Source of the DNA: a virus
Reading direction: 5' to 3' (one strand)
Virus record (IMG/VR): IMGVR_UViG_3300044640_001517
Location: 26,335-90,334 of that record
Length of the DNA: 64,000 nucleotides
The translations under genes were made by a program, and so were the position numbers. The notes under the pieces are model-generated. The model searched no databases. It was not told the origin of the DNA and saw nothing but the letters and a program-made list of their open reading frames with translations. Below are positions 2,386-50,904 of the stretch, in pieces (within the stretch, counting starts at the first letter, position 1; each line of letters begins with the position of its first letter).

Positions 2386-2850
2386 TTATTGGAGCAGTCT
2401 TCGGGGTGTCCAGCCCTTTTTAGCAAGATAAAGCAGCCCGTGGCGGATTGCATCAAGGGCGTGACCTTCCCCGCCTTTATGCCAGTAGTCAAGCTTCTTG
2501 AGCGCCTCGTTTGGGAACATTCTCTTGGCGTCTACAGGACTTTGAAGCACAATCGACTCTGGACTTGCGCAGGTGGATTCACGCGCAAGATGCTTGAGAA
2601 CGCCGATCTGCTCGAGTGAGTACGGTGCCTGCGAGTTCTTTGCGGTCTGCGCCGTGATAGTAAATCGCTCACAGGCGATCTCGAGATCTACCCGAGCATC
2701 AAGTGCCATGTCAAGTCCACGACGAACCGCGGTTGCAAACTCGTCTGCTTGGTATTCACCCGACCAAAGAAGCTCTGGCTCGCCATCTGAAAATGAAAAT
2801 AGACAGATACCGCTGGCTTTACCAGGATCTACTGCAAGGATCAATCTCAT
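2386..2850 (-). CDS. RuvC-like Holliday junction resolvase
   Basis: ILAVDPGKASG N-terminus, conserved E (ACERF), C-terminal HALDA. Confidence 0.75.
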   Translation of the reverse strand: MRLILAVDPGKASGICLFSFSDGEPELLWSGEYQADEFATAVRRGLDMALDARVDLEIACERFTITAQTAKNSQAPYSLEQIGVLKHLARESTCASPESIVLQSPVDAKRMFPNEALKKLDYWHKGGEGHALDAIRHGLLYLAKKGWTPRRLLQ

Positions 2851-35600: not shown

Positions 35601-38600
35601 TCCGGCATTTTTATTTATCTCTTCTTGACTACGGACATCGTCTTCTTGGCGTTCAAATATCATCTCAATACCGTGACGAACAGCCGCGGCAACGTCTTGT
35701 CTAGATGTAATCCCATCTGCCATGAGCAAAAACCTAGGCCATGTTGACTGATCACCGCTTCTAAATAATGTTGGATCCCAGCCCGTCCTGATTACGGGTG
35801 TCTTGATGTCGTTGACGGTTGACTCAATATTTTGCTTGAGGATCTTTGCAGACTTTGCGCTGCTTCCGCTGGTTGTGTCCATGTCAGTGTTTATCGCAGC
35901 GAGTAGATCTTGGTATTCTTGCTCGCCTGCTGCCTTAGGAATATCAGGTACCATCGCCAGTGGATTTGCAAGATTTGCGTTTAGAAAATCAGCAACAGCT
36001 TTGAGCTCAGGTGAGTCATACATGTTGTTGATCTGCTCTTCTGTAAATCCTTTATTGAACCAACTTGTCTGAGGACTAATTCCAAATATCGGATACCACT
36101 TGTTTGTAGGTACACTTGTCTTTCCACCCGAACCTGTGCTTGCGTAGAACGGAACACTGACGCCGTTGATGTTGACGAGCACGATCGGACGACCTGCGAC
36201 GTTTGCGATTGACATCATTGTCTCATTGACAGGCATCTTTACGAGAGTCGCTGACATTCCACGGATCTGATCATGAAGAGTTGCGTGCATGTCTGAGAGG
36301 GCACTGTCAACCATCTCTGACATCACCTCTGGATCAATTGCGTTTTGCTCTGGTGCAGGTGTTTCATCACCAGTCTCGACTGTTGTGTCGGGGGTCTCTG
36401 AAACTTCTGGATTCCATGGTGGAGGTGGTGGTATATCGTCAGGAGCCTCTGTTGCCCCCTCTGGGGCTTCAGCTTTTGGGAGCGCTGAGCCGCCGTCGCC
36501 TTCTGGAGGACTAGGTGGAGGTTCAACGCCTACACCGCCTTCTCCTTCTGCTGGTGGTTCACCCTTAGGAGCTTTTGATTTCTTAGCCTTTGGATCGATC
36601 TCGCCCGCCTGCACCTTGTTCCAGATCTCCATCTGCTGTTCAAGATTCTTAGGCTTCTTCTTTTCGCTTCCCTTTTCACGTGTGATCTCGACGTATGGAT
36701 CTTCATCAGGACCGATGACGGTAAGTTCACGTGTGTTGTACGCCAGACGCGCAACGTACGGACCCCAGGCACCCTTCTGCTCTGTTGGACGTGGGTCAAT
36801 CTCCATGCGGACCTTGACACCGCCCCAGGTCTTTTCATACTCCTCGACGATACCTGCGTAACCAAACTTGGTACGGACACGCATGCCAGGTGTGAGGAAC
36901 GTTGTGCCGTCCTTCGCGTAACCTGCTGGGCGACCCTTAGAGTCGACAGCGTCGATCGGTGGGAGAGCGGCTCCTGTTGGACGCCAGTATGCCGAACCGT
37001 CAATGTAACGTTTTACTGCCTTGACCATGTCCTTGAATGACTCCATGTCAACGTATCTCTCGCTGAAGATGTCATATGTTGGTAGTGAGTCAATGATCGC
37101 GTTCAGTCGTGCGAGTGCTTGATCGTCTGTCATTGTTCCGTTTGCAAGAGCCTCGCGGATCTGTCGGACCTCTTCAGCAGCCTTCTTGATCTTGTTGCGG
37201 TCAGTTGCCATGAGTACCGAGTCTTCGCCCGTTACTTCGTCACGTGATTTCTCAACATCATCAAATGCGTTCTGCAGGTCAGCTGCTTTTTCGGAGTCAT
37301 CCTTGTAGCGGAGCACCTGCGACATATCAACGTTATTGTTGGTTGTCTCGAGCTGCTCTGGAGCAACATCATCTGGTGCCTGCTGTTCGCCCGTAGGTAC
37401 TACACCTAGCGGTGCAGGTACATCGTCTGGACGCCACTCTGGATCAAGCTTAGGTTGCTCAGCGGGTGTCTCTTTAGGAGTAAGTTTACTAATGCGGATC
37501 GCATCTGCGGCATCTGCCGCCTGAAGCATCAGACTCTGGAGGTCCCCAGCGCCTACCTCTGCGTAAGGTTCAAGAAGCTCGGCAGCATCGCGGAATCGCT
37601 CTTCAGCGTCGACGTACTGTTCACCTTCATAGGCGTAGAGCGCGTCTTTAACGGCTTGACGGAACTTCTTGATATTCTTCTCATCTTTTGAACTGCGATC
37701 TGAGTAGTCTTCAAGAGTATCGTCAGCATCTTTAACCGCCTGCTTTACAGACTTGATGATGCGCTCGTTGTCATCTCCACCATCGGAAGGTGTAGGTGTT
37801 GGTGCTGGTGGCTCTTCAACTCCACCGCCGCCTTCACCTTCTGTTGAAGGTACAGGCACTTCGGGAGCATTTGGCTCTTCAACAGGTGCAGGCTCTGCTG
37901 GTTGCTTGACAAAGCTATCGATCCAGCTAAGAGCACCGCGTCCTAGTTGCTTCTTAGCACGTGTAACTGCAACGTATGCAATCCTGAACTCTACTGGATC
38001 TGGCATCTCAACTTCGCCAGTTGCCTTATTGACACGAGGGCCCCAGAAGTCAGTCCAGATCAGAACCTTGTCCCACTCTAGACCCTTCGCCTGGTGGACT
38101 GTTGTGATAAATACGTCGATCGGCTTGGCATCAGCCTCGGCCGGCGCGACACCACCGTTGAGTGAGACGCTCAGTTTCTTGAGTACGTTGCTGATAGTGT
38201 CTTGGTTTGTTGTCTCAAGACGCCACTGGCCCTTTGACTTGTCCCACTTGAAACCGTTCTTTGCGATCGTTGACTTGTTCTCAAACGTGTTACCAAAGAC
38301 GCCGATTCCGTTTTCGTCGATCGTGTAGTCAACGCCCTTGCCGAGTGATCCTTCAGAGCCAACGTCTGTATCGTCAATGTCGACTGACTTCAGTGCTGCG
38401 CCTGTGCTCTTGGCAAGATGCAGTTGATCAAGGAGACCACGGATTCCATCGATGCCTTCAGTCTCAACCAGCCCAACAAACAACTTAAGCTTATTGCTTG
38501 CGTTGCTGTTCTCGTCTTCGGCCTCTTTCTTGACCTCCGCCCATGTCCTAAACGGTGCAAGTTCTGGATGCATCGGCTTAGGCTTTGTGCCGGTGCCTCC

Positions 38601-41600
38601 GTTGAGCAAGTATTCCGCAGAGTCTGTGAGATTTACAAGATCATTCTTGTAGTTCTTTGTCACGCCGACAGTGCGTCCGCGCTGAAGCTGATCAAAGATC
38701 GCGGAGAGTCCGCCGCTATTTGTACGCACAAGAATTGCATCAGCTGTGTCATAAAGCGATTCCTCTGGAACGAGTTCGCCCGGATCTGCGTTTCCACCGA
38801 TAACACGGTACGGTGACTCGAGCATGCTCAGCCACTTGTTGCCTTCATTTGCGATATTTGCACCAAAGCGCCACGACTTTGTGAGTGGGAACTCGACAGC
38901 TCCGAGTACTTTCCCGAGTTGGTTTTCTCCACCACGAAATGCGTAGATCGCCTGGTTTTCATCACCTACATAGACCTTTTGGATTGTCTGATCTGCGATG
39001 ACCTTGCCTGACACAGGGTTGATGTCTTGCGCCTCGTCAAAGAAGATGAAGTCAACGGCTTGCTTAAGTCCCGAGCCAATCTCGCCAAGATCTGGATTTG
39101 ACAACGCCCACATCTTTGTGATGATGGTGTTGTCCATACGCAGCTTGCCGTTTGGATCCTTGTAGTCTTCCCACATCTTGTTTACGATGTCGAGCATCCA
39201 AGGCTTAACGTCTTGTTCTGGGATATCAAAGTGCTGTGGACCAATCTCTGGATCAGCGCTGATTAGATACTTGCGCATCGCCTCCATAAAGAACTTGTGC
39301 GCTTCATACAGACCGTATCCTTGGGCACCTGGACCTTCAAACTCTGTGATGCCGAGATACTTGTCAATATCCTTGTAGTATGAAAGCTCAGGGTTCTTGT
39401 CGAGCTTCTTTACGATATCTTTAGGGGCCCAGCGTGTTGCGATCGCGTCATTGGTGATGACCTCGATGTTTGTAAGACCGGCCTTCCTAAAGCGTTCTTC
39501 AGCTTCAAGCTGCGCTGACTTGTTGAACGCGATATACACTCCGCGCTCTTGAGCAGCCTCTTTCTTCTTACGCTTTCCTGCGAGAAGAAGTGTCGCTGTC
39601 TTACCGGTTCCTGCGAGTGCCTGAACAACGACGTTCTTGCCCTCCATGATCGCATCAAGAATTGCGCGCTGTTCCTCGGTTGGCTTGAATTGCTCGTCCT
39701 TATATGGATCGTTGGTATCAACGCCGTCTTGTGATGGCGTGTCAATCTCTTGCGCATCGACCATCGATGACTCATTGCTTGTACTTCCACCGGCGACGCC
39801 GTCAGGATCGATCTCACCGATCGGAAGCGGCTGTGCCTCGCGGATCATCTGTTCAACTGAAGGTACGGAGCAAGGTCCGTTTGCAGGACCAACGGCCGCT
39901 GTCAATCCAGCGCCACCGCAGTTCCAAGAAGCCGCGATCGCCTTGGCGGCGACGTACTCTGCAAGATCTGCCTCGTACTTTGCGTACGCATTCTCGTAGT
40001 CAGCGATTTCCTGCTGCTTAGCCTCAAATGCACCGTCAACATTAAGAAGTGTTGTCGGCGTTGTGTCGGGATTATTGATAGCACGCGTAAGCATTGCATC
40101 AGTAATTTCCCACGAGGCCTGAGCATCTGCATCTGCGCGGTGCCAGTCTGGCAACTTAACTTCAAGGAATTCAGCAACTGGTCCAAGACTGTTTGATGCA
40201 CGACGCTTGCCGTCTTTTTCACTTACCTGACTTGCACCAAACTGTGTCTTTGAGTTCCACTTAGGAAGTGTGCCTTCAGCGAGATCTTTTGAGTCAATTG
40301 TTCCAACAATGTTGATTGACAGACCATTTGCGCTGAGAACTCGTTGAAGAATCTCAAGGTCAAACGGCGTGTACTGTCCGCCAAGAATTACCTCGTCACC
40401 TGCATGTTCTTTGACAAAATCTAAGAATTGCTGATGCGCGTCCTTCATCGAAGGCTGAGTTGTGAGCCACTCGTCTGTTACAGGCGAGCCGTCCATCTGC
40501 TTGAGGTTCTTAGCAGACCAGTCAGAAAGCTCATGCTCTGGATTCATGTATGAACTAAATTGAGCACGTACCTCTCCGTCTGCAACAAACGTTCCGCCGA
40601 TCTGCACCGGCTGGTTACGTCCACCCTTTTCAGGTCCTGGTAAACCTGTTGATTCATAGTCAAAGAACATGATAGGTGTCTTGCGGATGATCGCCGCGGC
40701 CTCTTCCCAGGTCTTGGCGTCCTTGAGAAGCTCAGCCATCTTTCCGGTGAATGCACCTGGTGAAGGTTTGCGTGGCGCCTTAGGACGGTGCAGTGCTGGT
40801 TTATCTCCCTTAGGTGGAATTGTGCCACCGCGTGCAACTGGAATGATTGTTGTTTCATTCCACTCTTTACGTTGTGACTCGTGACCTGGGAAGTAACCCT
40901 GCACGCTTACCTTGTTCTTTGGCGTCATCTGATCGCGGAACACACGTTCAATTACGAATGAATCGCCTTCAGCAACGTCGCCAGGTTGCAGATCTTGCGC
41001 GGCGTAGCCGATGCTCTCTGTCAAAGGCACGCGCTCTGCAAATGGATCAACTGTTGTATCTTTAATTCCAAGCTGATCAAGTATTGACTGACGACGACGC
41101 TTGAGCATGTCCTTAAGAAGTTCATTTTCTTTAGGACTATTTACGATCGAATCAACGATCTCGTCAATGCGACTTGGCGTGATGTTGAGGAGCTTTTCTC
41201 CGCTCTTCTTGATGTCTGCCGCTGTCATACTGCCAAACACATCTGAGGCGGTTGGGTTCATTCCAGGATCGCGCATTGAGTCAAGTTCAGCAACCTCTGG
41301 GCCAAACCATTCTTTACGTGAACCACGGGCGCGCCATACAAGCACTCCACCTTGATCAACGCGAATTGGATTGCCGTCTCCGTCTGCAACAACATTGTCG
41401 TAGACCATGCCGATTACGTCGTAGTTAGACAACCACGCGTCAATCGCAAAGCCTTCATGCAACTTGCCGAGGAACTCTGGATCATTGATGTAGTCATCCA
41501 TTCCAGATGTGGCGTTTGGAATCATCGGACTGATGATCTGTAGTGCACCGTCGCGTGTTCCAAGACCTACATCTGTTGCAGGAATACCAAGTTCACGATA

Positions 41601-44600
41601 CAAGGCTGATCCAAGTGTCTCGACATCAGCGTGATCTTGCGAACGCGCTGTCTTGACGTAGTAGCGATTTCCTTCGCTGTCTTCGTAAACACCACCTTGG
41701 TTTGAGCCTGCCTGTCCGGCTACACGCTTCCAGTCTGATACATCGCCGTATTCACGAGGAGCTGTTCCTTGTGTCGGAGCCTCTGGAGCTTCGACCACTT
41801 CAGGAGCCTCTGCCTCTGTCGGTTGACCGTACGCCTTCTTGAGCGCGTCTTCTGTTGCGCGCTTAAGCGTGATGATGTACTCGTTTTGGCCAGGCTTAAG
41901 AACTGCCGGCTGTTCGCGTACACTGTCGACGATAAACTCACCGGTGCCGAGGTGCTCTTGTTCTTGGTCATACCACGAGAATCCGTTGAGACTGACAGAG
42001 TCAATCTCACCTGCGGCGACCTCAAAGACGATACGTACGTCGTTTGGATTTGTAGGCGAGAATCCCACCGCACCGATCTCGCCTGTTGTTAGGTCTGTCT
42101 CGGTGAATGGACGTGGGTCAAATGAAACAACAAAGCCAGGCGTTGTGTATTTCTTGAACAGCTCAGAGTTTGCGTTTACGCCGATTGAACGATACAGCGG
42201 AATCTCTGATACTTCCTTTGCGGCGGCGACAAGTCTAAATAGACCGGCAGCAGGCGTGTCGCTCTCAAGGTCGTCGACACCGTCGGCGATCGCCTTCTTT
42301 GAGTCAACAAGATCTTTAAAGCCACCAAAGTCTTCATAGAGCTGGTAGTACATCTCCATCGCCTTGCCGCCGTCACCACCGGTGAGTCGTTCAAGTGCGT
42401 CAAGAATTATGGCACGTGAACCAGGGTGCTGCCAGTCTTCGAGGTCGCTGTCGCCACCATCGATTGAGAGCATAAGACCCCAGTAAGACTGGAACGCCTC
42501 GCGCTCTTCAGCGCTCTCACTAAATGCCCACGGAAGATATGTATCAAGATCGCGTGCAAGTTGCGCATCTGCGTCGCCTTCTTGCGAAAGATCAAGACCG
42601 TTTATTCCACGAGAGATAAGTTCTTGTGCAAGATCTTGGATGTTTGGATTTGTCTCTTTATGCTGATTGATCAGACGGAACGCTGTTATCGCGTTCTCCG
42701 GTTTTCCAAGTTCTCCGTTGATCGCCTGTGCGGCACGTGTCTGAGCGAGTCGATCGCTGAGTGGAATCGCGGCGCTCGGTGAACCTGCAGGAGGTGTGTT
42801 GATCGTGTCAACATAGTTCAACTGATTCTTCTTAGACTTGTCAGGTGACGCGCTGTCAAAGATCCCGGCGAGCAAGAACCCAGCATCCATACCTGTCTGT
42901 TCAAGTGCCTCAAACAAAGCCTCGGCCTTGACAGGTTCATCTCCACTTTCAAACGGAAGGTTTCCATATCCGTTTGCTGGGCCTGAGTCAGATGGAAGAA
43001 CAGCGTCGCGGAGTGCGCGAACAAGTTCATCCTCGGAGAACTTACCGCTCAATACCCTAGGATCGTCTGTGTAGTCAGCGCTGTCTTGGTTTGTGCGACC
43101 TTCAGGCTTATAGAACTCAAAGATATTTGGCTTGTACGCGCCTTCAGGCGTTGTGTACATCGAGTCAAAGGCCTCATCATTAAATGTGCCCATGTCTTCT
43201 GCGTCTGGTTCGCCGCCAAACAGGTTCTCGTCTACCGGCTCGTCAAGATCTCCAGCAATGTTGTCTGAGTCTGCGAGGTCACCGTTGTACCACTTACCGA
43301 AGTCTTCTTCACGTCCCTCTGGAACTGAGAAGTCAACGATCGGCCAGCCGCCGCCAGCGCCTTCTGACACAACAACATCTGCTTCGCCTTCAGGAAACTT
43401 TGCCTTGAAGTCCTTGAGCACATCATCAAGTGTTCCTTCTTCAAAAGCGACGTCAACCTCAAAGCTTGTTCCTGGGTTACCGTTCTTAAGCTCGGTGTTG
43501 TCTCCCATTGGAATGTTGTACTTTTCAGCAAACGCAACCGCGTCACCTGTTGGGAAGTCTTCAATGTTGTCTTCGCCAAACCAGTCGTTAAAGCGTTCTT
43601 CTTCGCCTGCTGGAATATCAAACTCAAACACTGGGTATCCGTTTTGTGCATCGCCTGTAAAGCGAGCTTTTCCACCTGGGATGTCTTCTTCGAACTCTGA
43701 AATGATATCTTCGTTGCTACGACCTTCAGGAAGAACTGCAAGACGACGTGTAGTTGTTGCTGCTGGTTTTTCTTCAAAGTTATTGTTGATTCTGTCGAAG
43801 GAAAGCTTGTCCTTTGACTGCTGTAGACGATCCAAGTTTGACTTTGCGCGCTTGTGAAGTTTGCCGTCTGGACTATCAGGTCCGTTAAGCACGTTCTTCA
43901 TTGTCTCGATCTTGCGGTTGAGATCAGCTATCTGCCTGTCAAACTCAGATACTTTTTCTTCATATGCAGGAGTTGCTGCGGTTGGTGTTGGCCATGCAGC
44001 GTCGACGAGACGATCAAGTTCGTCCTGCGGCATGTTGACGATGTCGTCAACCTTGACGTTTGTGTCAGCCGCAGGCTTGTTCATCTTGTCAATCGTGAAC
44101 GTGCGGTCTTCGCCGTCGGTCTTGCTGAAACCTTTAAGCTGCTTCTTGCCGGCCTTGTTCTCGACGATCTCTTCAGGCGTAACCACGCGAAGCTTATCGT
44201 TGAAGTCAAACGCAACGTCTTTCTTTTCTTCAATTGACTTCTCAATGATTGCTGGAAGATTTGCAGTTGGTGTATCACGCAGGTCGTTTGCCGCGTCTAC
44301 GAGACGTTGGATCTCGGGTGAGATCTCTGGTGGTTCAGCAAACAGTGTTGGTTGACCAGGCTTTGTCTTCTCCATTTTTGCTGGTCCTGCTGGAGCAGCA
44401 GATGGACGTGAAGGCGCGCCAGCGCGCTCATCAGAGTCAGGAATTGGCCGACTATCTTCTGCGGACTGTAGACCTTTTTCTTCCCGCGCTGCAAGAAGAT
44501 CTTGCATCAACTCTGGATACTCATCAAAGTCTGGAGTTGGACCGACGTAGGTCCACTCATAACTTGTTGTTGGAATACCTACAGGTTTCTGTTCCCAGTT

Positions 44601-47600
44601 ACCTGGATCATCAAGCCGTTCTTGGAATTTTTCTCGCTCTCTTTGCAGTTTTTCTTGACGCGTTGCTTTTGGTTCACGCTTGCCGTTCTTTATCGCAATG
44701 GCCTCTGCGTTTGGCATGTCAGCCTTGACTGCCTCAGCCGCCTCGGCGAGTGTGTCGGTAGTTGCAATCTGCTTGTTGTTACCTTCGCCTAACCAGATGC
44801 CTTTACGCCATACCTCAAACTTGCTCTTTCCATCTTTTTGTACAGCCTCGGTGATGCTGTGATCTTCGCCGTACTCGTCTGCCGGTGGAATGTGCGTCCA
44901 TGCGTTTGCCTCTCCGCCATACATGCCGGCGATACGGATATCCCAGCCTTCTGCGGTTGTGCCTTGCGGAACATCTGCCATCGGCTTGTCCAGGCTCGGG
45001 TCAATAATCCGTTTTCCGTCAGGTCCAAGCTTGTAAATCTCGGGCAGAGGCTCGTACTTGGGTGGTTCAAGTGGAATCAGTTCCCCGTCAGGTCCAAGCT
45101 TGAAATTCTCGTCGGGCCCGCTCCAGATCTGGTCAGGTCGCAATTCTTTGTCGTCGGGGATGTTAGGCAAGTTCTCCCACGGCAGATCATCCCACGCTTC
45201 TGCTGGGATACCATCTGGGGGCTCAGGCCACTTGGTGCGACTGGAAGGCTTAGGAGCAACGATCTTGTCCCACGCAAAGTTCTTGCTGGTGCCGTCTGAG
45301 TCCTTGGCCTTTAGGTTCGTGCGACCTGTCTGTCCGTTCTGCCAGACGCCTTCTGGAGTAACAACGCGGTCCTTGTCGCTATACATGAAGTGGAGCTTTT
45401 GGTCGTTATCAATAGCATCTTGAACAAACTTCTTGATGTCAGCGATCTTGTTGACTTCTTTTGGATTGAGGTCAATGACATTTTCTGCGGCGCTTGGTTG
45501 TACCTCATCTCGCTTAACGTCCCATCCGGCCGGAGCTTCAGGAGTGCTTACACCTGTAACCTTGTCAGCGGTAAATGTGCGACCTTCACCGTCTGTCTCA
45601 CTGAAACCGACGATGTTTGTCTTACCTGTCTTAGGACTTGTATAGATACGTTCTGGTCTAAACGTACGATCTTTTCCACCGTAGCCAAACTTGACAGGAT
45701 ACTGACCGTCGATCGCCTTCTGCATCTGATCAACAACCTCTTCAGGCGTGCTGTCAGGTTTGATAAACTGTGGTGCCTTGCCGCGGTCGGCCTCTGGCAT
45801 CGTGATGATCTTTGCCTTTTCTTTCTTCGCCTCTTTCTTAGGTGAAGGAGCATCCATCTTTGAGATGGTAAACGTGCGCTCTTCGCCGATCGCATGATCA
45901 AATCCAACGAAGTTTGTTTCACCGGTCTTCTTGTTGGTATATGTATTGCCGCTTGGTTGAACCTCGCGATCTTTTCCGTTATACTTAAATCGAAGAACGT
46001 CGCCGTTACGGTACGCTTGCATGACTGCGCCGATCTTTGACATTGACGTGTCACCTGCAAAGTCAACCAGATTGCCCGATGGAGTGGCGTAGCTAGGTAT
46101 GTCGACCATCGCTTTTCCGCCGCCGCGCTCTTCTCCAGTCAGTCTAAATCCATCTTTTTCGGCGTCATAGACCTCGTCTTCGGTGAACCAATATGCGCCG
46201 ACATTTTTTGACGCCATCTTGTATTCTTTTACACCGGTGTCCATCAGCTGTTTGTACGTAAGACCCTTAACGGCATTCTTCATCTTTTCAACATCAAGAA
46301 GAACACGATCTGTCGGGACACCCATTGACTCGAGCTGTGCCGAGTCCATGATGTAGTCCGTTGCGTTATAGTCACCGTCTGTCGCCTTGTCGAGCGCGTT
46401 GCGAAGATTTGACTCTGAACCTGTAAGCTTTACAGATCCGTCGTCTTGAAGTTTGATGTCAACACCAGGTGCAAACTCCTGCTTCCACGCATCAAGACCT
46501 TCTTGAGTTACAGGCTCTCCGTCTGTCTTCCAGTCAACACTGACAGACTTAACGTCTGCCTTTTCAAGCTGCGATGCTGGCTTTTCAAGTTGCGCTTTTT
46601 CTTCAGCTGCGCGCTTGTTTTCTTCATCAGCCATTCGCTGAACAGCAGGAGGCACTGGACCAGGGCGGTCGCCAGGTCCTGTTGTCTCACCCGCCGGCTT
46701 AAACTTATCTTCGCCGATGTCTTCTTGAACAACGTCAACACCCCAGCCACCTTGGCTGAGCAACTTCTGACCTTGCTTGCTGTTGAGAAACTTTTCATAC
46801 TGATCTTGGTCGGTAAGTGCTGTAAGCTCAACAGAGTCCCAACCGTCCGCCATGCCGATCTTTTGGTTTCCAACCGCACGGAATACTGACGCCTTGCGTG
46901 CGCCGGTGATCTCTTGCTGGCCGTCTTTGTTTATTGGGATCTCAACACGGTAACCGTCAGCGCTCATAAACGCGACGTGGTTAGGCTGTGATGCCTGTGT
47001 AGGTGTCCAGCCTGTCGGTGCGTCAAGCTTTCGCATTGACGAGAAGTTGACAGCGTACTTTTGATCTTCGCGAGAGACAGCTACTTCTGGGGTGTCCTTT
47101 AGATACGACTTCTTAATGATCGCCTTTGCGGACTGACCTTTCTTAGCTGGTACAGCGTAGACTCCGTTTGGGATATTTTTATCGTCTTTGATCTCGACTT
47201 CAATGTCATCAACACCTGACATGCCGACAACTTTTCCACTTACGTAGCTGTGTTTGCCAGACTTGAAGATGTTGAATTTCCAGCCACCACCCATGAACGC
47301 AAAACGGCCAAAGCGGTCACGGCGTTGCATACGTGCACGGGCAGAACGCGCCGCACGTGAGTTACCGCCAAGACCAAAGCCAAGTACGGCGATGATCGGT
47401 TCAAGATCAACAGCGGCTGTGATCGGGACAACACCAGGTCCCAATGCCGCGATACGTGCAAACGCGTGCTTGCGCTCAAATGAACCGTGTTCGTACGAGT
47501 GAGCAGACGCGACAAGTGCGCGGATGTCGTCGTCGATGATGAGGTCATCGGCCGCGATCCAACGTGCACGTGCGTGGCGCAACGCCGACGCGGTCATCGC

Positions 47601-47915
47601 GTGCGCGCGTGTCGAGAGCGGGTGACCTACCGAAAGAAGGTCAGAGTTTTCAAGAGAAGAGGTTGACACCTTGTTCTTTGAAGAAAGCGCGATAAAGCCA
47701 GACACGGCGCGTAACGCAGAGAACGCACGTGTTGAGTTGCTGCCGTATACTTCCTTGCGGATCTCACGGTTTGCAACCTCGATCGCCGAAGCGAGCGTTA
47801 CCTGACGTTCTGGTTGAATTGACTTGTTTGCAGTATCAAGCATCGTGATGATGCTTGAGCGAAGACGAAGTAGTTCAGCCGTACTGAGCTGTGTGCGCTT
47901 TTTCTTGTTTGACAT
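32670..47915 (-). CDS. Giant polyvalent protein (5081 aa): 4x WYL, ADP-ribosyltransferase, HipA/PI3K-like kinase, DEDDh exonuclease, UvrD-like helicase, putative second ART
   Basis: WYL-like F.Y..K.R.V.P...G......RTF..DK repeats; LYR...EQEH; GSNQGG..YYVK..E..DAWLSNYD..DN..VDQGG; DYESTG..FD..HRADAD; AGTGKT, DEAQD, VGDENQAIYAFRG, HQAKGLEW, YVAVTRA. Confidence 0.85.
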   Translation of the reverse strand: MSNKKKRTQLSTAELLRLRSSIITMLDTANKSIQPERQVTLASAIEVANREIRKEVYGSNSTRAFSALRAVSGFIALSSKNKVSTSSLENSDLLSVGHPLSTRAHAMTASALRHARARWIAADDLIIDDDIRALVASAHSYEHGSFERKHAFARIAALGPGVVPITAAVDLEPIIAVLGFGLGGNSRAARSARARMQRRDRFGRFAFMGGGWKFNIFKSGKHSYVSGKVVGMSGVDDIEVEIKDDKNIPNGVYAVPAKKGQSAKAIIKKSYLKDTPEVAVSREDQKYAVNFSSMRKLDAPTGWTPTQASQPNHVAFMSADGYRVEIPINKDGQQEITGARKASVFRAVGNQKIGMADGWDSVELTALTDQDQYEKFLNSKQGQKLLSQGGWGVDVVQEDIGEDKFKPAGETTGPGDRPGPVPPAVQRMADEENKRAAEEKAQLEKPASQLEKADVKSVSVDWKTDGEPVTQEGLDAWKQEFAPGVDIKLQDDGSVKLTGSESNLRNALDKATDGDYNATDYIMDSAQLESMGVPTDRVLLDVEKMKNAVKGLTYKQLMDTGVKEYKMASKNVGAYWFTEDEVYDAEKDGFRLTGEERGGGKAMVDIPSYATPSGNLVDFAGDTSMSKIGAVMQAYRNGDVLRFKYNGKDREVQPSGNTYTNKKTGETNFVGFDHAIGEERTFTISKMDAPSPKKEAKKEKAKIITMPEADRGKAPQFIKPDSTPEEVVDQMQKAIDGQYPVKFGYGGKDRTFRPERIYTSPKTGKTNIVGFSETDGEGRTFTADKVTGVSTPEAPAGWDVKRDEVQPSAAENVIDLNPKEVNKIADIKKFVQDAIDNDQKLHFMYSDKDRVVTPEGVWQNGQTGRTNLKAKDSDGTSKNFAWDKIVAPKPSSRTKWPEPPDGIPAEAWDDLPWENLPNIPDDKELRPDQIWSGPDENFKLGPDGELIPLEPPKYEPLPEIYKLGPDGKRIIDPSLDKPMADVPQGTTAEGWDIRIAGMYGGEANAWTHIPPADEYGEDHSITEAVQKDGKSKFEVWRKGIWLGEGNNKQIATTDTLAEAAEAVKADMPNAEAIAIKNGKREPKATRQEKLQREREKFQERLDDPGNWEQKPVGIPTTSYEWTYVGPTPDFDEYPELMQDLLAAREEKGLQSAEDSRPIPDSDERAGAPSRPSAAPAGPAKMEKTKPGQPTLFAEPPEISPEIQRLVDAANDLRDTPTANLPAIIEKSIEEKKDVAFDFNDKLRVVTPEEIVENKAGKKQLKGFSKTDGEDRTFTIDKMNKPAADTNVKVDDIVNMPQDELDRLVDAAWPTPTAATPAYEEKVSEFDRQIADLNRKIETMKNVLNGPDSPDGKLHKRAKSNLDRLQQSKDKLSFDRINNNFEEKPAATTTRRLAVLPEGRSNEDIISEFEEDIPGGKARFTGDAQNGYPVFEFDIPAGEEERFNDWFGEDNIEDFPTGDAVAFAEKYNIPMGDNTELKNGNPGTSFEVDVAFEEGTLDDVLKDFKAKFPEGEADVVVSEGAGGGWPIVDFSVPEGREEDFGKWYNGDLADSDNIAGDLDEPVDENLFGGEPDAEDMGTFNDEAFDSMYTTPEGAYKPNIFEFYKPEGRTNQDSADYTDDPRVLSGKFSEDELVRALRDAVLPSDSGPANGYGNLPFESGDEPVKAEALFEALEQTGMDAGFLLAGIFDSASPDKSKKNQLNYVDTINTPPAGSPSAAIPLSDRLAQTRAAQAINGELGKPENAITAFRLINQHKETNPNIQDLAQELISRGINGLDLSQEGDADAQLARDLDTYLPWAFSESAEEREAFQSYWGLMLSIDGGDSDLEDWQHPGSRAIILDALERLTGGDGGKAMEMYYQLYEDFGGFKDLVDSKKAIADGVDDLESDTPAAGLFRLVAAAKEVSEIPLYRSIGVNANSELFKKYTTPGFVVSFDPRPFTETDLTTGEIGAVGFSPTNPNDVRIVFEVAAGEIDSVSLNGFSWYDQEQEHLGTGEFIVDSVREQPAVLKPGQNEYIITLKRATEDALKKAYGQPTEAEAPEVVEAPEAPTQGTAPREYGDVSDWKRVAGQAGSNQGGVYEDSEGNRYYVKTARSQDHADVETLGSALYRELGIPATDVGLGTRDGALQIISPMIPNATSGMDDYINDPEFLGKLHEGFAIDAWLSNYDVIGMVYDNVVADGDGNPIRVDQGGVLVWRARGSRKEWFGPEVAELDSMRDPGMNPTASDVFGSMTAADIKKSGEKLLNITPSRIDEIVDSIVNSPKENELLKDMLKRRRQSILDQLGIKDTTVDPFAERVPLTESIGYAAQDLQPGDVAEGDSFVIERVFRDQMTPKNKVSVQGYFPGHESQRKEWNETTIIPVARGGTIPPKGDKPALHRPKAPRKPSPGAFTGKMAELLKDAKTWEEAAAIIRKTPIMFFDYESTGLPGPEKGGRNQPVQIGGTFVADGEVRAQFSSYMNPEHELSDWSAKNLKQMDGSPVTDEWLTTQPSMKDAHQQFLDFVKEHAGDEVILGGQYTPFDLEILQRVLSANGLSINIVGTIDSKDLAEGTLPKWNSKTQFGASQVSEKDGKRRASNSLGPVAEFLEVKLPDWHRADADAQASWEITDAMLTRAINNPDTTPTTLLNVDGAFEAKQQEIADYENAYAKYEADLAEYVAAKAIAASWNCGGAGLTAAVGPANGPCSVPSVEQMIREAQPLPIGEIDPDGVAGGSTSNESSMVDAQEIDTPSQDGVDTNDPYKDEQFKPTEEQRAILDAIMEGKNVVVQALAGTGKTATLLLAGKRKKKEAAQERGVYIAFNKSAQLEAEERFRKAGLTNIEVITNDAIATRWAPKDIVKKLDKNPELSYYKDIDKYLGITEFEGPGAQGYGLYEAHKFFMEAMRKYLISADPEIGPQHFDIPEQDVKPWMLDIVNKMWEDYKDPNGKLRMDNTIITKMWALSNPDLGEIGSGLKQAVDFIFFDEAQDINPVSGKVIADQTIQKVYVGDENQAIYAFRGGENQLGKVLGAVEFPLTKSWRFGANIANEGNKWLSMLESPYRVIGGNADPGELVPEESLYDTADAILVRTNSGGLSAIFDQLQRGRTVGVTKNYKNDLVNLTDSAEYLLNGGTGTKPKPMHPELAPFRTWAEVKKEAEDENSNASNKLKLFVGLVETEGIDGIRGLLDQLHLAKSTGAALKSVDIDDTDVGSEGSLGKGVDYTIDENGIGVFGNTFENKSTIAKNGFKWDKSKGQWRLETTNQDTISNVLKKLSVSLNGGVAPAEADAKPIDVFITTVHQAKGLEWDKVLIWTDFWGPRVNKATGEVEMPDPVEFRIAYVAVTRAKKQLGRGALSWIDSFVKQPAEPAPVEEPNAPEVPVPSTEGEGGGGVEEPPAPTPTPSDGGDDNERIIKSVKQAVKDADDTLEDYSDRSSKDEKNIKKFRQAVKDALYAYEGEQYVDAEERFRDAAELLEPYAEVGAGDLQSLMLQAADAADAIRISKLTPKETPAEQPKLDPEWRPDDVPAPLGVVPTGEQQAPDDVAPEQLETTNNNVDMSQVLRYKDDSEKAADLQNAFDDVEKSRDEVTGEDSVLMATDRNKIKKAAEEVRQIREALANGTMTDDQALARLNAIIDSLPTYDIFSERYVDMESFKDMVKAVKRYIDGSAYWRPTGAALPPIDAVDSKGRPAGYAKDGTTFLTPGMRVRTKFGYAGIVEEYEKTWGGVKVRMEIDPRPTEQKGAWGPYVARLAYNTRELTVIGPDEDPYVEITREKGSEKKKPKNLEQQMEIWNKVQAGEIDPKAKKSKAPKGEPPAEGEGGVGVEPPPSPPEGDGGSALPKAEAPEGATEAPDDIPPPPPWNPEVSETPDTTVETGDETPAPEQNAIDPEVMSEMVDSALSDMHATLHDQIRGMSATLVKMPVNETMMSIANVAGRPIVLVNINGVSVPFYASTGSGGKTSVPTNKWYPIFGISPQTSWFNKGFTEEQINNMYDSPELKAVADFLNANLANPLAMVPDIPKAAGEQEYQDLLAAINTDMDTTSGSSAKSAKILKQNIESTVNDIKTPVIRTGWDPTLFRSGDQSTWPRFLLMADGITSRQDVAAAVRHGIEMIFERQEDDVRSQEEINKNAGAYFALLDQAIKENASDMYLGGDFDNSKKMKQLAEDWDFARPSLMNLDMFIDQMLNASTDPQVKKWKDRIQYMDATEESDYRLSLREGARLVTSDKIKLHGKSNSEVTPAGRPPVVIKDPKPISSSGLTGIPSLMEAVSTVVDRPDQYKERGVSAAVDSTDIEDLDIRASTIITPDGERKLRLRFKLTSWRGAEVTQEISSNLGQAGSLFRAEAPQIERVSVAENGDIVLSGESVVNNWGGAVFNNGRMFVSDSEDTGNPWSINIMRANDDNSLEPLDAQYESAPAAFHNQVIIDLPIDAEQSDIEEALRAAGVRDVRAAQQQDTKSLIENRLLSLFDSQTDPNINITDQDRRDKKLEKIKERWGVEAADVFPRIGSHGRIEYMLPDNVAFLMQEDTGIKGFKHNLSLEKAVANLVDTQSRPPTPEELIQVTTNAIVDVVTNGLVATVSRVQEGLNYKGMSSTEDLWTGGADYVFLRPTKHDENSTLEVMGGFNANSEGSIWWPATDIFERSDLYANIDDLYGKRVPGTDILRAVKYEGQEAMVKHGVPITKDAQIVVSQLVRDRAIKMLKERGITEIDGTPIEEIILTAGSKILEDRRGSKDSAKGQLLRFAEENLTEAFTEAGGSETVDFNDLAAMLTYTGSDLHYQPAPAGSVAVAAKYMFTVDMGLDPFEIENTRQLPQIIVRYPDGHYYTHDAGSAGAVLSGDAYVEPMLASDVNVLRNKVAEYNSPFDRQEEEGKVDWLPFSGNHAVTNAGGYDTMLRAEIVIPFGQENAGNPTGEDYADILDRYKLVDEIIKKVAKMKSFEMYSAARGMLLPMYANTRDRNLQSYIMQQLINLTLYTGRTVPPMPVTSAGEEKDTNMLPLPDYDEFAKYGNYLNRAGTQAVLENVDGEYAGWLRAAYSAKIIRDFDDQGLPIRSYMEITTDRDGGLSFQLKENSGFKWDPNKREITFSSRGIMYKIRAIQPDEKLNRIQL

Positions 47916-47917
47916 AT

Positions 47918-49150
47918 CTAGCTTTCGATGTTAGGTAGCAAGTCGGAATCTTGGCTGTCATATGTCATTATGGCAAGTTCGCGCGCACGATCAAATCCGT
48001 GCTCGTTGTTGTCAACTCCACGCTTCCACGCTGCGCGTAGTGCGGGGATGATCTCGTAACCGAGACCGCTGTATTCTGCAAATGCTGTTATTGCGTGTTC
48101 AGGAGATTCGTATTCGTGTGAATCTCCGAGCGTGATGATCAACTCTGTGGCCGCCTGTGCAGCCGCTGTGAGAACTGACTCTGATGCGTTTGACGCTGTT
48201 GACTTTGGGTGACCTTCAGGTAACAAGTCATTGTCTTGCTTGTAGTTTGGATTCGCCGGTGTACCTGACTTGAGTAGACGAAGATATGCGTTTACGCGCG
48301 CCATCGCCCACTGATCACGGGTCTTACCTGGGCGATGTGAGCTCGAGTACGCACCAGCGCCGCGGCGATACACCGCCTTTAACTGTGCAAGTGTTGCTTT
48401 GCGGCCGGCCTTTGCATCTACGTTGTGCTCTTTGACCTTGTTCATCAACGCTGTCTCAGTCTTGGCTGAAAACGTAATGTTGCGTCCACCTGATGCAGAT
48501 CCTTTTGGATTCTTTTTTGATCCCGTGATTCTGTCTTTTTTAGGCGCAGGCTTTGAGGCCGCGGCTAAGAATACAGAATCATCTTCGGTGGCGTAGTCTT
48601 CAGCGCCGTCTTCATAGACGTATACCTCAACCTGCTCTTGCTCTGGCGTTGCGACCAACTTTCCGCCGGTCTGCATTCCGGTGATTGCGCGCAGTTGCCA
48701 TCCCCATTTTTTATGTGCAGCGTCTCGCTCTGCGAGAAGATCTGCAATGCCCTGCTCGTTTGCATCTGATGCGAGCTTAAATGACTCAAGAATACATTCA
48801 TTTAGAATGTTGTTTGCCTGGAGAAGATCTGCGCTCATCAGCACTGGATCGTCAATGCGGTCGTTGTCCATGCTTTCGATCTTTGAGAACGCAGACATGG
48901 CTGACAACGTTGCTGGTGAGTCAAACCCAAGCTTAAGAATACTTTCAGCGATCGGATCAATTGCACCTTGCGCATCTGCGTAGATGTCACCAAACAGATC
49001 ATGAAACTCGGAGAAGTCCGGCCCTTTAACATTCCAATGAAACCCGATCGCCTTTGTGTAAAAAGCAAATGTCGTACCGAGACAGTGACCGAGACTCATT
49101 GCGAGGTTTGCCTTCATCTCGTGTGAATGCTGTGGGTTGTTCATGATCAT
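47918..49150 (-). CDS. Dps/ferritin-like domain fused to additional phage head-associated domains
   Basis: FHWNVKGPDFSEFHDLF...IDPIAE Dps signature; second domain LKAVYRRGAGAYSSSHRPG..RDQWAMARVNAYL. Confidence 0.8.
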   Translation of the reverse strand: MIMNNPQHSHEMKANLAMSLGHCLGTTFAFYTKAIGFHWNVKGPDFSEFHDLFGDIYADAQGAIDPIAESILKLGFDSPATLSAMSAFSKIESMDNDRIDDPVLMSADLLQANNILNECILESFKLASDANEQGIADLLAERDAAHKKWGWQLRAITGMQTGGKLVATPEQEQVEVYVYEDGAEDYATEDDSVFLAAASKPAPKKDRITGSKKNPKGSASGGRNITFSAKTETALMNKVKEHNVDAKAGRKATLAQLKAVYRRGAGAYSSSHRPGKTRDQWAMARVNAYLRLLKSGTPANPNYKQDNDLLPEGHPKSTASNASESVLTAAAQAATELIITLGDSHEYESPEHAITAFAEYSGLGYEIIPALRAAWKRGVDNNEHGFDRARELAIMTYDSQDSDLLPNIES

Positions 49151-49164
49151 TGTTTTCTCTTTTG

Positions 49165-50904
49165 CTATTGAACCGGTGTGATTGCTGTTGGCTGCATCGC
49201 CTCAGCAGGTGACTCTGCTGGTGCTGCTGGTGTCTCTATCGGCGCTGGTACTTCTTCAACAGGTGCGGGTGTCTCAACCGGTGGCGGAGTTCCCTGCAGC
49301 ATCTGCTGTACCTCAGGCGGAATCGGCGCAATGCTTGACGCCTGCTGTGCACCCTTTGTCGCCTCCATCACCTCGGGCGCAACCGCGGCGATCATCGCCT
49401 CCGTAAGCTCTGGAGTGATCGCACCCTTTTCAATGAGCAGGCGTAGCGCAAGTTCATTTGGTGTAGGTGCATCAGCCTCGCTGAATCCGTGCGCACGACG
49501 CCATGTATCAAACGACACCGCCATGCGATCAAATCCACTGTCAGCGTCGAGTGCGCGGTCGTTGCGTGTTGCAACCTGTGATGGGTCGTACCAGATCGTG
49601 AGGCGATTAACCTCTGCCTCGTCAAATCCGTTTGCGAGCAGATATGGACGCAGATACACAACGGTGAGCGCGTCTGCAATGAGAAGCATCAACGGCTCGA
49701 TGTGTGCCTTGTACAGTGACTCGTCGATCTGCAGAGCGTTTGAGTACTTGACGTTTGCAAGACCTGTGACGACGTCCTTTGGAACATCAAGACCTTGCAA
49801 GATACGCTCGAGAACACGATCAGCACGCTGTGCGAGTGCGGGGTCAAACGAACGTTCAAACTTAAACTGCTTGATCTTGTCGCCAAGTTCAGCAGGTCCA
49901 CGGATGATCAACGGAACAACCGCAGATGCGGAGTCCTCGTCACGAATTGGCGTTGTCATCGCATCGATGAGTTGATCTTCAAATGCGTCCATCGCCTCTT
50001 CAGGGTTATACTCAGGATTGATGTCACCCATCTCGTCGAACGGATAGTCCGCGTCAGGACCGGCGGCGACACTGAGACCGTCAGGAAGATAGAGCGCGCC
50101 TGCGTTTAAGCGCGAGCGTGCGGTTGCACGGAACGTGCGGTTCAACAGCAGAAGTTCTGCGCAGAGATCGAGCAGACCGCGTAGTGACGAATCAGCCTCT
50201 TCAGAGAAGCGAGGATGCGCGCGCCAGATGCGACCGATAAACGCGTTCTGTGGAAGAGCGACGACACCCTTGTTGTTTTGACTGGCGATGCTGTTGCCAC
50301 CCATCAAGATGTCGCGACGACCGACGATTCCGTAGTTGTTCTTCGAGTCAACCTGAACCTCATCTGTTGAGCGGATGTCCCATGACTCTGGAACGCCTGT
50401 GCCCTTGCGCTCTGGCATCTGCACGAGGTAGCATTCGCCGGCGACGGCGATGTTCAACGCGGCGTCTCGGAGAAGTCCAGCCTGTCCGCCGTATGCGGAG
50501 TCTAGTCGTGCGAGAGCTCGCTCTGCGGCCGACGCAAGTCGTCCGCTGACAAGACTCGACGATCGAACCGATACAGGTGTTTCTGCCGGGTTCTCGACGA
50601 CAGCAGCATACAGACGTATACGACTAACAACGGAAGCAACCAGATTAAATGCATACTTGATCTCTCCAATCGCATCGTAGTATTCCCAAGCCTCGGCCTG
50701 CCACGCACTGGACGAAGCCGAACGGCGATGACGGAACTGTTCCGCCTCATCTTTATTTTCAACCCTGACCTGGGCGGCCGCCGCTGTAAGTGCTCTTGGA
50801 GTTCCCCAGATCGCTGATTCCGCGTACGAAAAGCCAGAAGGTAGCACGCCTGCAGGACGGACAACGCGCTTGACATTGCCTACATCACGACGAAAAACTG
50901 CCAC
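49165..50904 (-). CDS. Portal protein
   Basis: WQAEAWEYYDAIGEIKYA..VSRIRLYAA...SAVVP...GLDVP, an actinophage portal pattern; position near the terminase. Confidence 0.85.
   Translation of the reverse strand: MAVFRRDVGNVKRVVRPAGVLPSGFSYAESAIWGTPRALTAAAAQVRVENKDEAEQFRHRRSASSSAWQAEAWEYYDAIGEIKYAFNLVASVVSRIRLYAAVVENPAETPVSVRSSSLVSGRLASAAERALARLDSAYGGQAGLLRDAALNIAVAGECYLVQMPERKGTGVPESWDIRSTDEVQVDSKNNYGIVGRRDILMGGNSIASQNNKGVVALPQNAFIGRIWRAHPRFSEEADSSLRGLLDLCAELLLLNRTFRATARSRLNAGALYLPDGLSVAAGPDADYPFDEMGDINPEYNPEEAMDAFEDQLIDAMTTPIRDEDSASAVVPLIIRGPAELGDKIKQFKFERSFDPALAQRADRVLERILQGLDVPKDVVTGLANVKYSNALQIDESLYKAHIEPLMLLIADALTVVYLRPYLLANGFDEAEVNRLTIWYDPSQVATRNDRALDADSGFDRMAVSFDTWRRAHGFSEADAPTPNELALRLLIEKGAITPELTEAMIAAVAPEVMEATKGAQQASSIAPIPPEVQQMLQGTPPPVETPAPVEEVPAPIETPAAPAESPAEAMQPTAITPVQ

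Follow-up and report, generated by a model that had tools for sequence, protein, structure and literature searches.

This study concerns a 64,000-nucleotide stretch of viral DNA, bases 26335-90334 of the 90,334-bp IMG/VR virus record IMGVR_UViG_3300044640_001517 (hereafter the window), and in particular an array of four WYL repeats carried within one of its genes. The gene is a single uninterrupted open reading frame (ORF) of 5081 amino acids (aa) on the minus strand (32670-47915, no stop), which encodes a polyvalent protein presumed to be virion cargo. The array spans residues 621-1287 of this protein and is built from repeats of about 76 residues, all four in one minus-strand reading frame: repeat 1 at 45828-46055 (aa 621-696), repeat 2 at 45531-45758 (aa 720-795), repeat 3 at 45234-45461 (aa 819-894), and repeat 4 at 44055-44279 (aa 1213-1287). 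Repeats 1, 2, and 3 follow one another at intervals of exactly 99 aa. The first two repeats are joined by a basic linker of 23 aa (45759-45827, minus strand; aa 697-719; isoelectric point (pI) 10.0, net charge +4), the second and third by an acidic linker of the same length (45462-45530, minus strand; aa 796-818; pI 4.1, net charge -3), and the third and fourth by an acidic spacer of 318 aa (44280-45233, minus strand; aa 895-1212; pI 4.48, net charge -27) in which no Pfam family was matched except for a weak FKBP_C hit (E 0.055).

The repeats are clearly related to one another. Pairwise identity among the four is 28-38%, and the four stretches align over 83 columns with 32-40% identity to repeat 1 and eight invariant residues. 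A hidden Markov model (HMM) built from all four scored repeats 1 to 4 at 113.9, 115.1, 117.4, and 113.3 bits, respectively. Because leave-one-out HMMs built from three repeats still regained the fourth at 45-59 bits (49.5, 59.1, 45.3, and 50.7 bits for repeats 1 to 4), with the rest of the 5081-aa protein at -1.2 bits or lower, the repeats are not an artifact of model building. Applied to the six-frame translation of the whole window, the profile of the wider 125-domain family found only these four, the next best score being 3.5 bits, and the four-repeat HMM found no fifth copy in the entire virus record. A first-pass annotation made from the sequence alone had placed four WYL-like repeats here; the HMMs recovered exactly that number, at coordinates agreeing to within about 30 nucleotides.

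Membership in the WYL family was examined with profiles of increasing depth. Over the first 1300 aa, the summed score for Pfam WYL (PF13280) was 26.0 bits against a cut-off of 21.8. Searched singly, repeat 1 (16.0-16.3 bits, E about 0.01) and repeat 2 (14.2 bits) scored below that cut-off, and repeats 3 and 4 gave no WYL match in Pfam. These single-repeat scores, together with the Sso7d-type barrels that appear among the weak matches in the PDB (E 0.4-1.2), would fit a view in which the repeats are another small barrel or resemble WYL by chance. Such a view is extremely improbable given the results of the deeper profiles. Alignment A2 comprises 17 domains, namely the four window repeats and 13 copies from six distinct related viral contigs. 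Fourteen of its 17 members match Pfam WYL at E<=1 (best E 4.1e-5), and WYL is the sole Pfam family matched by more than one of them, every other family being matched by a single A2 sequence only. When the A2 profile was searched against all PDB chains, PafBC ranked first (7p5x and 9fnd, E 0.0024; 6sj9, E 0.016). Among the 14 chains listed as matches, seven are WYL or PafBC by name, including four called 'WYL domain-containing protein', five are unrelated (galactokinase, three Sso7d-type chains, and desmoglein), and 8bns and 8tp8 align over the same columns.

A profile built from the four repeats themselves was also searched against 1.84 billion representative proteins, yielding 86 proteins at E<=0.001 (relatives are designated by P numbers). 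Those checked in the tail of the profile, P0076, P0062, P0087, P0071, P0055, P0059, P0067, and P0005, are Pfam WYL proteins at exactly the matched residues, with Pfam WYL scores of 38.9 bits for P0005 and 27.1 bits for P0067, and the PafBC-like fusions P0078 and P0086 are likewise Pfam WYL at the matched residues. A profile drawn from the repeats alone thus retrieves Pfam-verified WYL proteins at the correct positions. Three of these, P0076, P0062, and P0087 (54.5, 39.9, and 42.3 bits with Pfam WYL; P0087 has no WCX match), form alignment A3. Comparison of A2 with A3 by hhalign gave a probability of 97.9% and an E value of 5.2e-13 over 60 columns with 37% identity, and P0076 matches the PafB-like chain 9fnd_X at E 4e-26. 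The closest cellular relatives of the repeats among the 1.84 billion proteins are PafB/PafC-like. In ESM-Atlas, the nearest clusters are viral 'WYL domain-containing' proteins (score 0.85-0.86), which serves as a lead only, and repeat 4 matches phrog_13105, a family annotated as function-unknown, at E 6.5e-4. On this profile evidence, the repeats are WYL-family modules of a distinct subfamily that is nearly confined to giant polyvalent proteins of actinobacterial phages, and each repeat is predicted to consist of a short helix and a small beta-barrel. The profile match to WYL that the first-pass annotation had named as its check was therefore obtained from the hhalign comparison, from the Pfam matches of 14 of the 17 A2 members, and from the first rank of PafBC in the PDB.

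The subfamily is well populated. The 86 representatives stand for clusters at 50% identity, among which P0002 equals the window's own protein except for two residues; 58 are at least 1300 aa and 47 at least 2000 aa long, with a median of 2384 aa. A single-domain match was obtained in 79 of the 86, with one to four copies at varying positions, and the remaining seven (P0061, P0064, P0070, P0074, P0075, P0077, and P0079) had none at a domain E value of 1e-3 or better. P0085 was rejected as a family member, being an NHL-repeat protein. Several short entries, namely P0005 (315 aa on a 1122-bp contig), P0037, P0007, and probably P0067, are pieces of larger ORFs truncated by the ends of their contigs. 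Eight others (P0056, P0072, P0083, P0082, P0084, P0059, P0073, and P0066) are short but complete, at 64-134 aa, and each contains a single WYL module; P0059, a WYL-only protein, is located on a 71.9-kb contig. Such small, presumably viral WYL-only proteins, represented by these eight and by 122-aa and 115-aa clusters in ESM-Atlas, are the nearest neighbors of the window modules in feature space, match them directly by profile, and share the same motif pattern. They differ in that they are free-standing and carry one copy, whereas the window modules are internal to a larger chain.

WYL domains are now understood as the ssDNA (single-stranded DNA)-sensing switch of transcription factors that control the damage response (PafBC, DriD) and phage-defense operons (CapW, BrxR). 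The window array lacks the partners of such regulators. Pfam searches of four chunks spanning the 5081 aa found no helix-turn-helix (HTH) family at E<=0.1, and WCX (PF25583) had no match at E<=0.1 anywhere in the protein, although it was detected in the control proteins P0062, P0076, P0078, and P0086. The 23-residue linkers are so short that they leave no room for WCX between repeats 1-3. Because HTH and WCX were both searched for and are both absent, the modules lie outside the winged HTH (wHTH)-WYL-WCX regulator family. The absence of HTH reported for the repeats by the first-pass annotation thus extends to the whole protein. Its description of them as 'stand-alone' holds insofar as neither an HTH nor a WCX partner is present, but not in the sense of separate genes, since they are internal domains of one 5081-aa ORF.

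The residues that gave the family its name have changed as well. The W-Y-L triad aligns to T-N-F, T-N-I, T-N-L, and K-Q-L in repeats 1-4 and is not kept; of the 125 family domains, 83 carry N and 13 carry Y at the middle position, and the coupling Trp of CapW is replaced, mostly by Thr, Ile, or Val. In CapW, as described in PMC11662680, the triad Trp packs on the linker helix and relays the ligand signal to the HTH. Across the same 125 domains, the family follows the pattern A-I, F-x-Y-N-G-K-x-R-x-V-x-P, N-P-K-x-G-x-x-N-L-x-G, and D-G-x-x-[KR]-[TN]-F-T-x-D-K, with the first Arg present in 118. The conserved polar and basic positions, in family numbering, are K30, R32, N42, K44, N49, K/R61, and K/R67.

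Ligand contacts were compared through PafB, for which mutation of R181, Y196, R204, R208, R211, or R214 is described to abolish ssDNA binding (PMC11804915); the numbering of chain 7p5x_AY fits the Mycobacterium smegmatis PafB numbering used there. Three of these six positions are basic in every repeat. The equivalents of R181 are R650, R750, R850, and R1243 in repeats 1-4, those of R208 are R680, R779, K878, and R1271, and those of R214 are K686, K785, K884, and K1277. Of the 125 family domains, 118 have R at the first of these positions, 113 have K or R at the second, and 89 have K or R at the third. At the other three positions, the repeats carry N668, N767, N867, and Q1259 for Y196; I676, D775, D874, and D1267 for R204; and T683, T782, A881, and T1274 for R211.

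The genes around the giant ORF bear on its likely destination. A portal gene (49165-50904, minus strand; phrog_776, E 1e-105) lies two genes upstream, and directly upstream is a Dps-like fusion gene (47918-49150, minus strand; phrog_3636 'DNA binding protein', E 4e-18). Downstream of the giant ORF are a 243-aa ORF and then an 1818-aa capsid-protease fusion. The order of portal, Dps fusion, and giant gene is kept in five related viral loci (L005, L008, L009, L010, and L011), in a sixth locus (L012) the protease fusion comes after the giant gene, and the same gene order surrounds the giant gene of Actinomycetia phage DSL-LC01. That phage supplies the best portal match (77% identity) and, according to PMC10611076, is a lake phage assembled from a metagenome, for which an Actinomycetia host was predicted. 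In total, the portal matches 812 phage records, almost all of them with actinobacterial hosts (Mycobacterium, Gordonia, Microbacterium, Arthrobacter, and others). Since the portal matches actinophage records and DSL-LC01 has a predicted host of the same group, the host of this uncultured phage is very probably an actinobacterium. The link to the actinobacterial PafBC response drawn by the first-pass annotation is apt in this respect, as the portal relatives are almost all from actinophages and the cellular relatives of the repeats are PafB/PafC-like. At the DNA level, no similarity to known phages was found for 44000-47915.

Besides the WYL array, the giant protein contains a DEDDh 3'-5' exonuclease domain at aa ~2417-2599 (40119-40667, minus strand; Pfam RNase_T, E 7.9e-5; phrog_192, E 2.2e-14) and a UvrD/SF1 helicase domain at aa ~2747-3324 (37944-39677, minus strand; Pfam UvrD-helicase, E 1.7e-13, and UvrD_C, E 5.6e-11; phrog_1967, E 4.7e-81), the latter beginning ~1450 residues past repeat 4. 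Several disparate domains are therefore united in one chain (four WYL modules, an RNase_T exonuclease, and a UvrD helicase), and the gene lies among late or virion genes, with the portal and Dps fusion on one side and the capsid-protease fusion on the other. According to Iyer et al. (2017), the genes for phage polyvalent proteins are found in the late virion region, and their products are believed to enter the cell along with the DNA. From the position of the gene between portal and capsid protease, and by analogy with these proteins, the giant protein is probably packed in the head and ejected. Excision of the array as a separate protein was considered and rejected for lack of evidence: sites of the form [LIVM][TVS]A[SAG][AGS] occur at aa 107, 134, 1895, and 4692, and none flank the array.

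Taken together, these observations lead us to propose, with a probability of roughly 0.5, that the array binds single-stranded nucleic acid without catalytic action and thereby retains a multi-enzyme protein, packaged in the head and ejected from it, on ssDNA or RNA as infection begins. According to this proposal, the giant protein would be loaded into the head and leave it together with the phage DNA; the WYL modules would make their contacts through a putative conserved polar and basic face comprising K30, R32, N42, K44, N49, K/R61, and K/R67; and they would thereby anchor the exonuclease, the helicase, and the putative kinase-like and ART-like domains to ssDNA or RNA, either on the incoming genome or close to it. 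The ligand is suggested by the known members of the family, as ssDNA is reported to be the ligand of the PafBC, CapW, BrxR, and DriD WYL domains (PMC11804915, PMC11662680, PMC13622015). The role would parallel that proposed for the ssDNA-binding ArdC-N and MutS-I domains, which are given as the commonest non-catalytic domains of polyvalent proteins (Iyer et al. 2017). In both cases the proposed job is that of a single-strand binder retaining an injected multi-enzyme protein on the incoming DNA, and the class of protein that carries the domain, encoded among late virion genes, is the same. The folds of ArdC-N and MutS-I are unrelated to WYL.

A number of findings weigh against this proposal. 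No repeat alone reaches the Pfam WYL cut-off. The equivalents of Y196, R204, and R211, half of the PafB contacts, are lost, and the array has no WCX, the domain described as providing the second wall of the tunnel or crevice that holds ssDNA in PafBC and CapW (PMC11804915, PMC11662680), so that this wall would be missing. The net charges of the barrel cores are 0, +3, 0, and 0 for repeats 1-4, and the 5081-aa protein as a whole is very acidic (pI 4.70, net charge -266). The array is ~1100-1450 residues away from the exonuclease and helicase. Packaging and ejection are no more than probable from gene position. Finally, enzymes and WYL modules are only loosely associated among relatives. The window protein (P0001) was compared by phmmer with the representatives, and 47 WYL giants were scored after dropping P0002, proteins shorter than 1300 aa, those with no WYL of at least 30 bits, and those with no phmmer match. 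The exonuclease was found in 21 of the 47 and a P0001-type helicase in 11, counts from single-sequence phmmer that other helicase families would escape. The recognized neighbors on the left side of the WYL, counted up to a distance of 150 residues, were the putative kinase-like region 2040-2300 in nine giants, the N-terminal domain in seven, and the exonuclease in two, with none recognized in 28.

The core charges given above rule out strongly basic barrels, and they raise the question of whether a nucleic-acid ligand exists at all. The barrels could be structural spacers, or could make protein-protein or capsid-interior contacts for loading, folding, or threading the giant protein. Barrel cores that are not basic and the loss of half of the known contact residues would both be expected under such a role. 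It would also fit the N-terminal domain (aa 1-410; 46686-47915), which has no Pfam or PHROG name, occurs in 40 of the 47 WYL giants, nearly always at the N-terminus, and may mediate loading of the protein into the head; in seven of the 47, WYL directly follows this domain. Nevertheless, the residues conserved in the family are of the surface type and match PafB contact positions (R32 in 118 and K/R61 in 113 of 125 domains, along with K30, N42, K44, N49, and K/R67), a pattern that a simple spacer would not require, and repeats 3 and 4 have ratios of nonsynonymous to synonymous substitution rates (dN/dS) of only 0.03-0.07. A purely structural role is therefore judged unlikely, if by no means negligible.

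The phmmer map further revealed that the modules of the window protein are shuffled among the representatives. In the 47 giants, the most widely shared regions are the N-terminal domain (40), region 1570-2030 (35), and region 2040-2300 (32). The last of these, a putative kinase-like region at aa ~2038-2297 of the window protein (41025-41804), is the commonest domain directly before WYL. To the right of the WYL, within the same 150 residues, region 1570-2030 was found in seven giants, the helicase in two, and the exonuclease in one, and no domain was recognized in 36. The notion of WYL as a dedicated accessory of the helicase or exonuclease was weakened by these data, since co-occurrence reached only 11 and 21 of the 47, respectively.

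The same map bears on a second suggestion of the first-pass annotation, a sensor that gates the linked enzymes. In such an allosteric arrangement, a ligand on the WYL module would switch neighboring enzyme domains (the putative kinase-like and ART-like domains, the exonuclease, and the helicase) on or off. WYL domains do relay ligand binding to fused domains in transcription factors, and sensing was proposed for enzyme-fused WYL domains in the account of Makarova et al. (2014). Direct adjacency is also seen in some relatives, where WYL follows region 2040-2300 (nine of 47), adjoins the exonuclease in four proteins, and adjoins the helicase in three. Neighbors, position, and copy number nevertheless vary, no recognized domain lies within 150 aa in 28 of the 47 giants on the left and 36 on the right, and the Trp that couples ligand to output in CapW is replaced, with Thr, Ile, and Val commonest. 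In the window protein itself, flexible 23-aa linkers and the 318-aa acidic spacer part the modules from any enzyme. An allosteric sensor is thus very unlikely.

Copy number and sequence divergence provide complementary information on how the modules evolve. Among phages with portals 73-81% identical to that of the window, the giant proteins carry 4, 2, 2, 2, and 2 WYL copies; the giant protein of L012, a locus without a portal, carries one; and the 3289-aa 'hypothetical protein' at the same position in DSL-LC01 has two strong copies and one weak copy. In the cultured Microbacterium phage Pumpernickel, gp82 (2235 aa), located at the same place, has no WYL match. When the array was searched by tblastn against 50,697 phage records, DSL-LC01 was the sole match. 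WYL copy number in this head-module protein shifts quickly. In the four-copy locus L005, repeats 1-4 are 52, 58, 84, and 92% identical to their orthologs, compared with 24-44% for paralogs. The dN/dS values against L005 are 0.24, 0.20, 0.07, and 0.03 for repeats 1-4, at synonymous distances (dS) of 1.2-1.6 that are near saturation. Given that each copy has its own ortholog in L005 and a low dN/dS, the four copies are old, individually maintained, and under purifying selection.

The first-pass annotation had further suggested a ligand sponge or decoy that blinds host WYL sensors; neither this function nor the gating one is supported by any result obtained. Phage signal sponges are small, abundant, separately expressed early proteins that bind host signaling molecules. 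The window modules are instead parts of a 5081-aa ORF in a late head module, and because a virion protein would be present in few copies, bulk sequestration is implausible. The retention of only three of the six PafB contacts and the absence of the WCX half of the PafBC/CapW tunnel also count against a bulk sponge. The eight small free-standing WYL proteins would fit a sponge role better than the window array does.

The decoy idea survives only in a local form, feasible at a low copy number but in our view distinctly unlikely, in which host-derived PafB/C-type WYL modules delivered with the DNA would cover what few single-stranded stretches the incoming genome has, leaving host PafBC and BrxR/CapW-like sensors without their ssDNA cue. 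Several observations are consistent with it. The nearest cellular relatives of the modules are PafB/C-like and the host is very probably an actinobacterium; ssDNA activates PafBC, CapW, and BrxR; three to four tandem modules could lend avidity for longer ssDNA; and the product of a head-module gene could already be there when infection begins. On the other side, WCX is absent, only half of the residues that contact ssDNA in PafB are retained, and no viral WYL decoy was found in the full-text literature searched. Moreover, since relatives vary between one and four copies and the cultured Pumpernickel has none, the WYL function is dispensable. The fullest version of the idea would have actinophages take the ssDNA-alarm barrel of their hosts (the PafB/PafC WYL), remove its output domains, and deliver it in one to four copies as virion cargo that masks the entering ssDNA, so that PafBC-type damage responses and WYL-controlled defense operons stay off; we consider this sequence of events quite improbable. 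If it were true, masking would represent the first viral countermeasure aimed at WYL sensors, made from the sensor's own domain, and phages would be seen to blunt the ssDNA cue of such sensors.

Returning to the proposal of a single-strand binder, comparison with known systems places the array nearest to PafB/PafC. These proteins, which make up the mycobacterial DNA-damage activator PafBC (7p5x, 9fnd, and 6sj9), provide the best match of solved structure, the shared unit being the helix and barrel; the equivalents of R181, R208, and R214 are R or K in the repeats, and the actinobacterial host group is common to both. The array differs in lacking HTH and WCX, in its T-N-[F/I/L] or K-Q-L triad, in the loss of Y196, R204, and R211, and in architecture, as it comprises four copies in one giant viral chain, whereas PafBC is a transcription factor with one WYL in each of two chains. 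The CapW repressor of CBASS, the BrxR repressor of BREX, and the DriD activator belong to the same domain family and have ssDNA as their ligand. Their ssDNA contacts are described as residues flanking the triad strand and an Arg near the barrel end (PMC11662680, PMC13622015). In the array, basic residues are similarly found ahead of the triad strand in repeats 2-4 and behind it in repeats 3-4. In contrast to these regulators, the array has no RWHVR motif, coupling Trp, DNA-binding domain, or WCX, and direct matches to them are weak (E 0.75-2.3).

Fusions of WYL to enzymes form another point of reference. Those described by Makarova et al. (2014) include SF1/PIF1-type helicases, 3'-5' exoRNases, and Cas3. 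The window protein resembles them in that WYL modules without HTH, a DEDDh exonuclease, and an SF1 helicase are part of the same polypeptide, and in some relatives WYL directly adjoins these enzymes. The WYL domain of Thermotoga elfii PIF1 is reportedly an accessory ssDNA-binding module. A PIF1-type arrangement, in which WYL is attached to and co-occurs with the helicase core, does not describe the window array: the helicase lies ~1450 residues off, both enzymes are more than 1100 residues from the array, and 36 of the 47 WYL relatives lack this type of helicase. The array further differs as viral virion cargo present in up to four copies.

There are precedents for WYL domains themselves, for their tandem and enzyme-fused forms, and for phage polyvalent proteins. 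No WYL modules in phage virion or polyvalent proteins were described in the full-text literature searched, which consisted of main texts and included few subscription journals, so that an earlier mention elsewhere is possible. The main text of Iyer et al. (2017) names WYL only as a host CRISPR-linked sensor and not as a domain of polyvalent proteins. Our findings define a well-populated viral WYL subfamily, comprising 86 clusters at 50% identity, that has lost its output domains and occurs in one to four copies on giant head-module proteins of actinophages. They add a predicted nucleic-acid-binding domain type to the polyvalent-protein repertoire, beyond the main text of the founding paper. 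If the modules bind ssDNA, they would offer a handle on how injected multi-enzyme proteins stay at the entering genome. A practical limit for such work is that the sole public phage record with the modules, DSL-LC01, is metagenome-assembled, and the cultured Pumpernickel lacks them.

Several further features of the locus and its relatives were recorded. No tRNA genes were found in the window. The gene at 47918-49150, between the portal and the giant gene, combines its Dps/ferritin-like domain with further domains. The closest full-length relatives of the giant protein, both near-identical and related, are 5348-6091 aa long and add ADPrib_exo_Tox, NUDIX, and KTSC domains; one of the seven has a precomputed PF13280 label. 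In the P0067 cluster (P0094-P0096), WYL directly precedes the same DEDDh exonuclease family, followed by DUF5872; JGI lists the protein as 'DNA polymerase III epsilon subunit-like', and because its contigs are short, P0067 may itself be cut off from a giant protein. The spacer between repeats 3 and 4 contains a small unnamed domain (aa 980-1097; in the region of 44976-45326 in the window) that also directly follows the single WYL of P0025 (95 bits), a recurrence that hints at a WYL-plus-partner unit. The 5081-aa protein has just two cysteines, at aa 2666 and 2682, in the stretch that connects the exonuclease to the helicase. Just past WYL repeat 4, a short acidic repeat matching the pattern D-F-x-[IV]-P-x-G-x-E-E-x-F-x-x-W-[FY] occurs in two copies ~97 residues apart, at 43575-43628 (aa 1430-1447) and 43281-43337 (aa 1527-1545).

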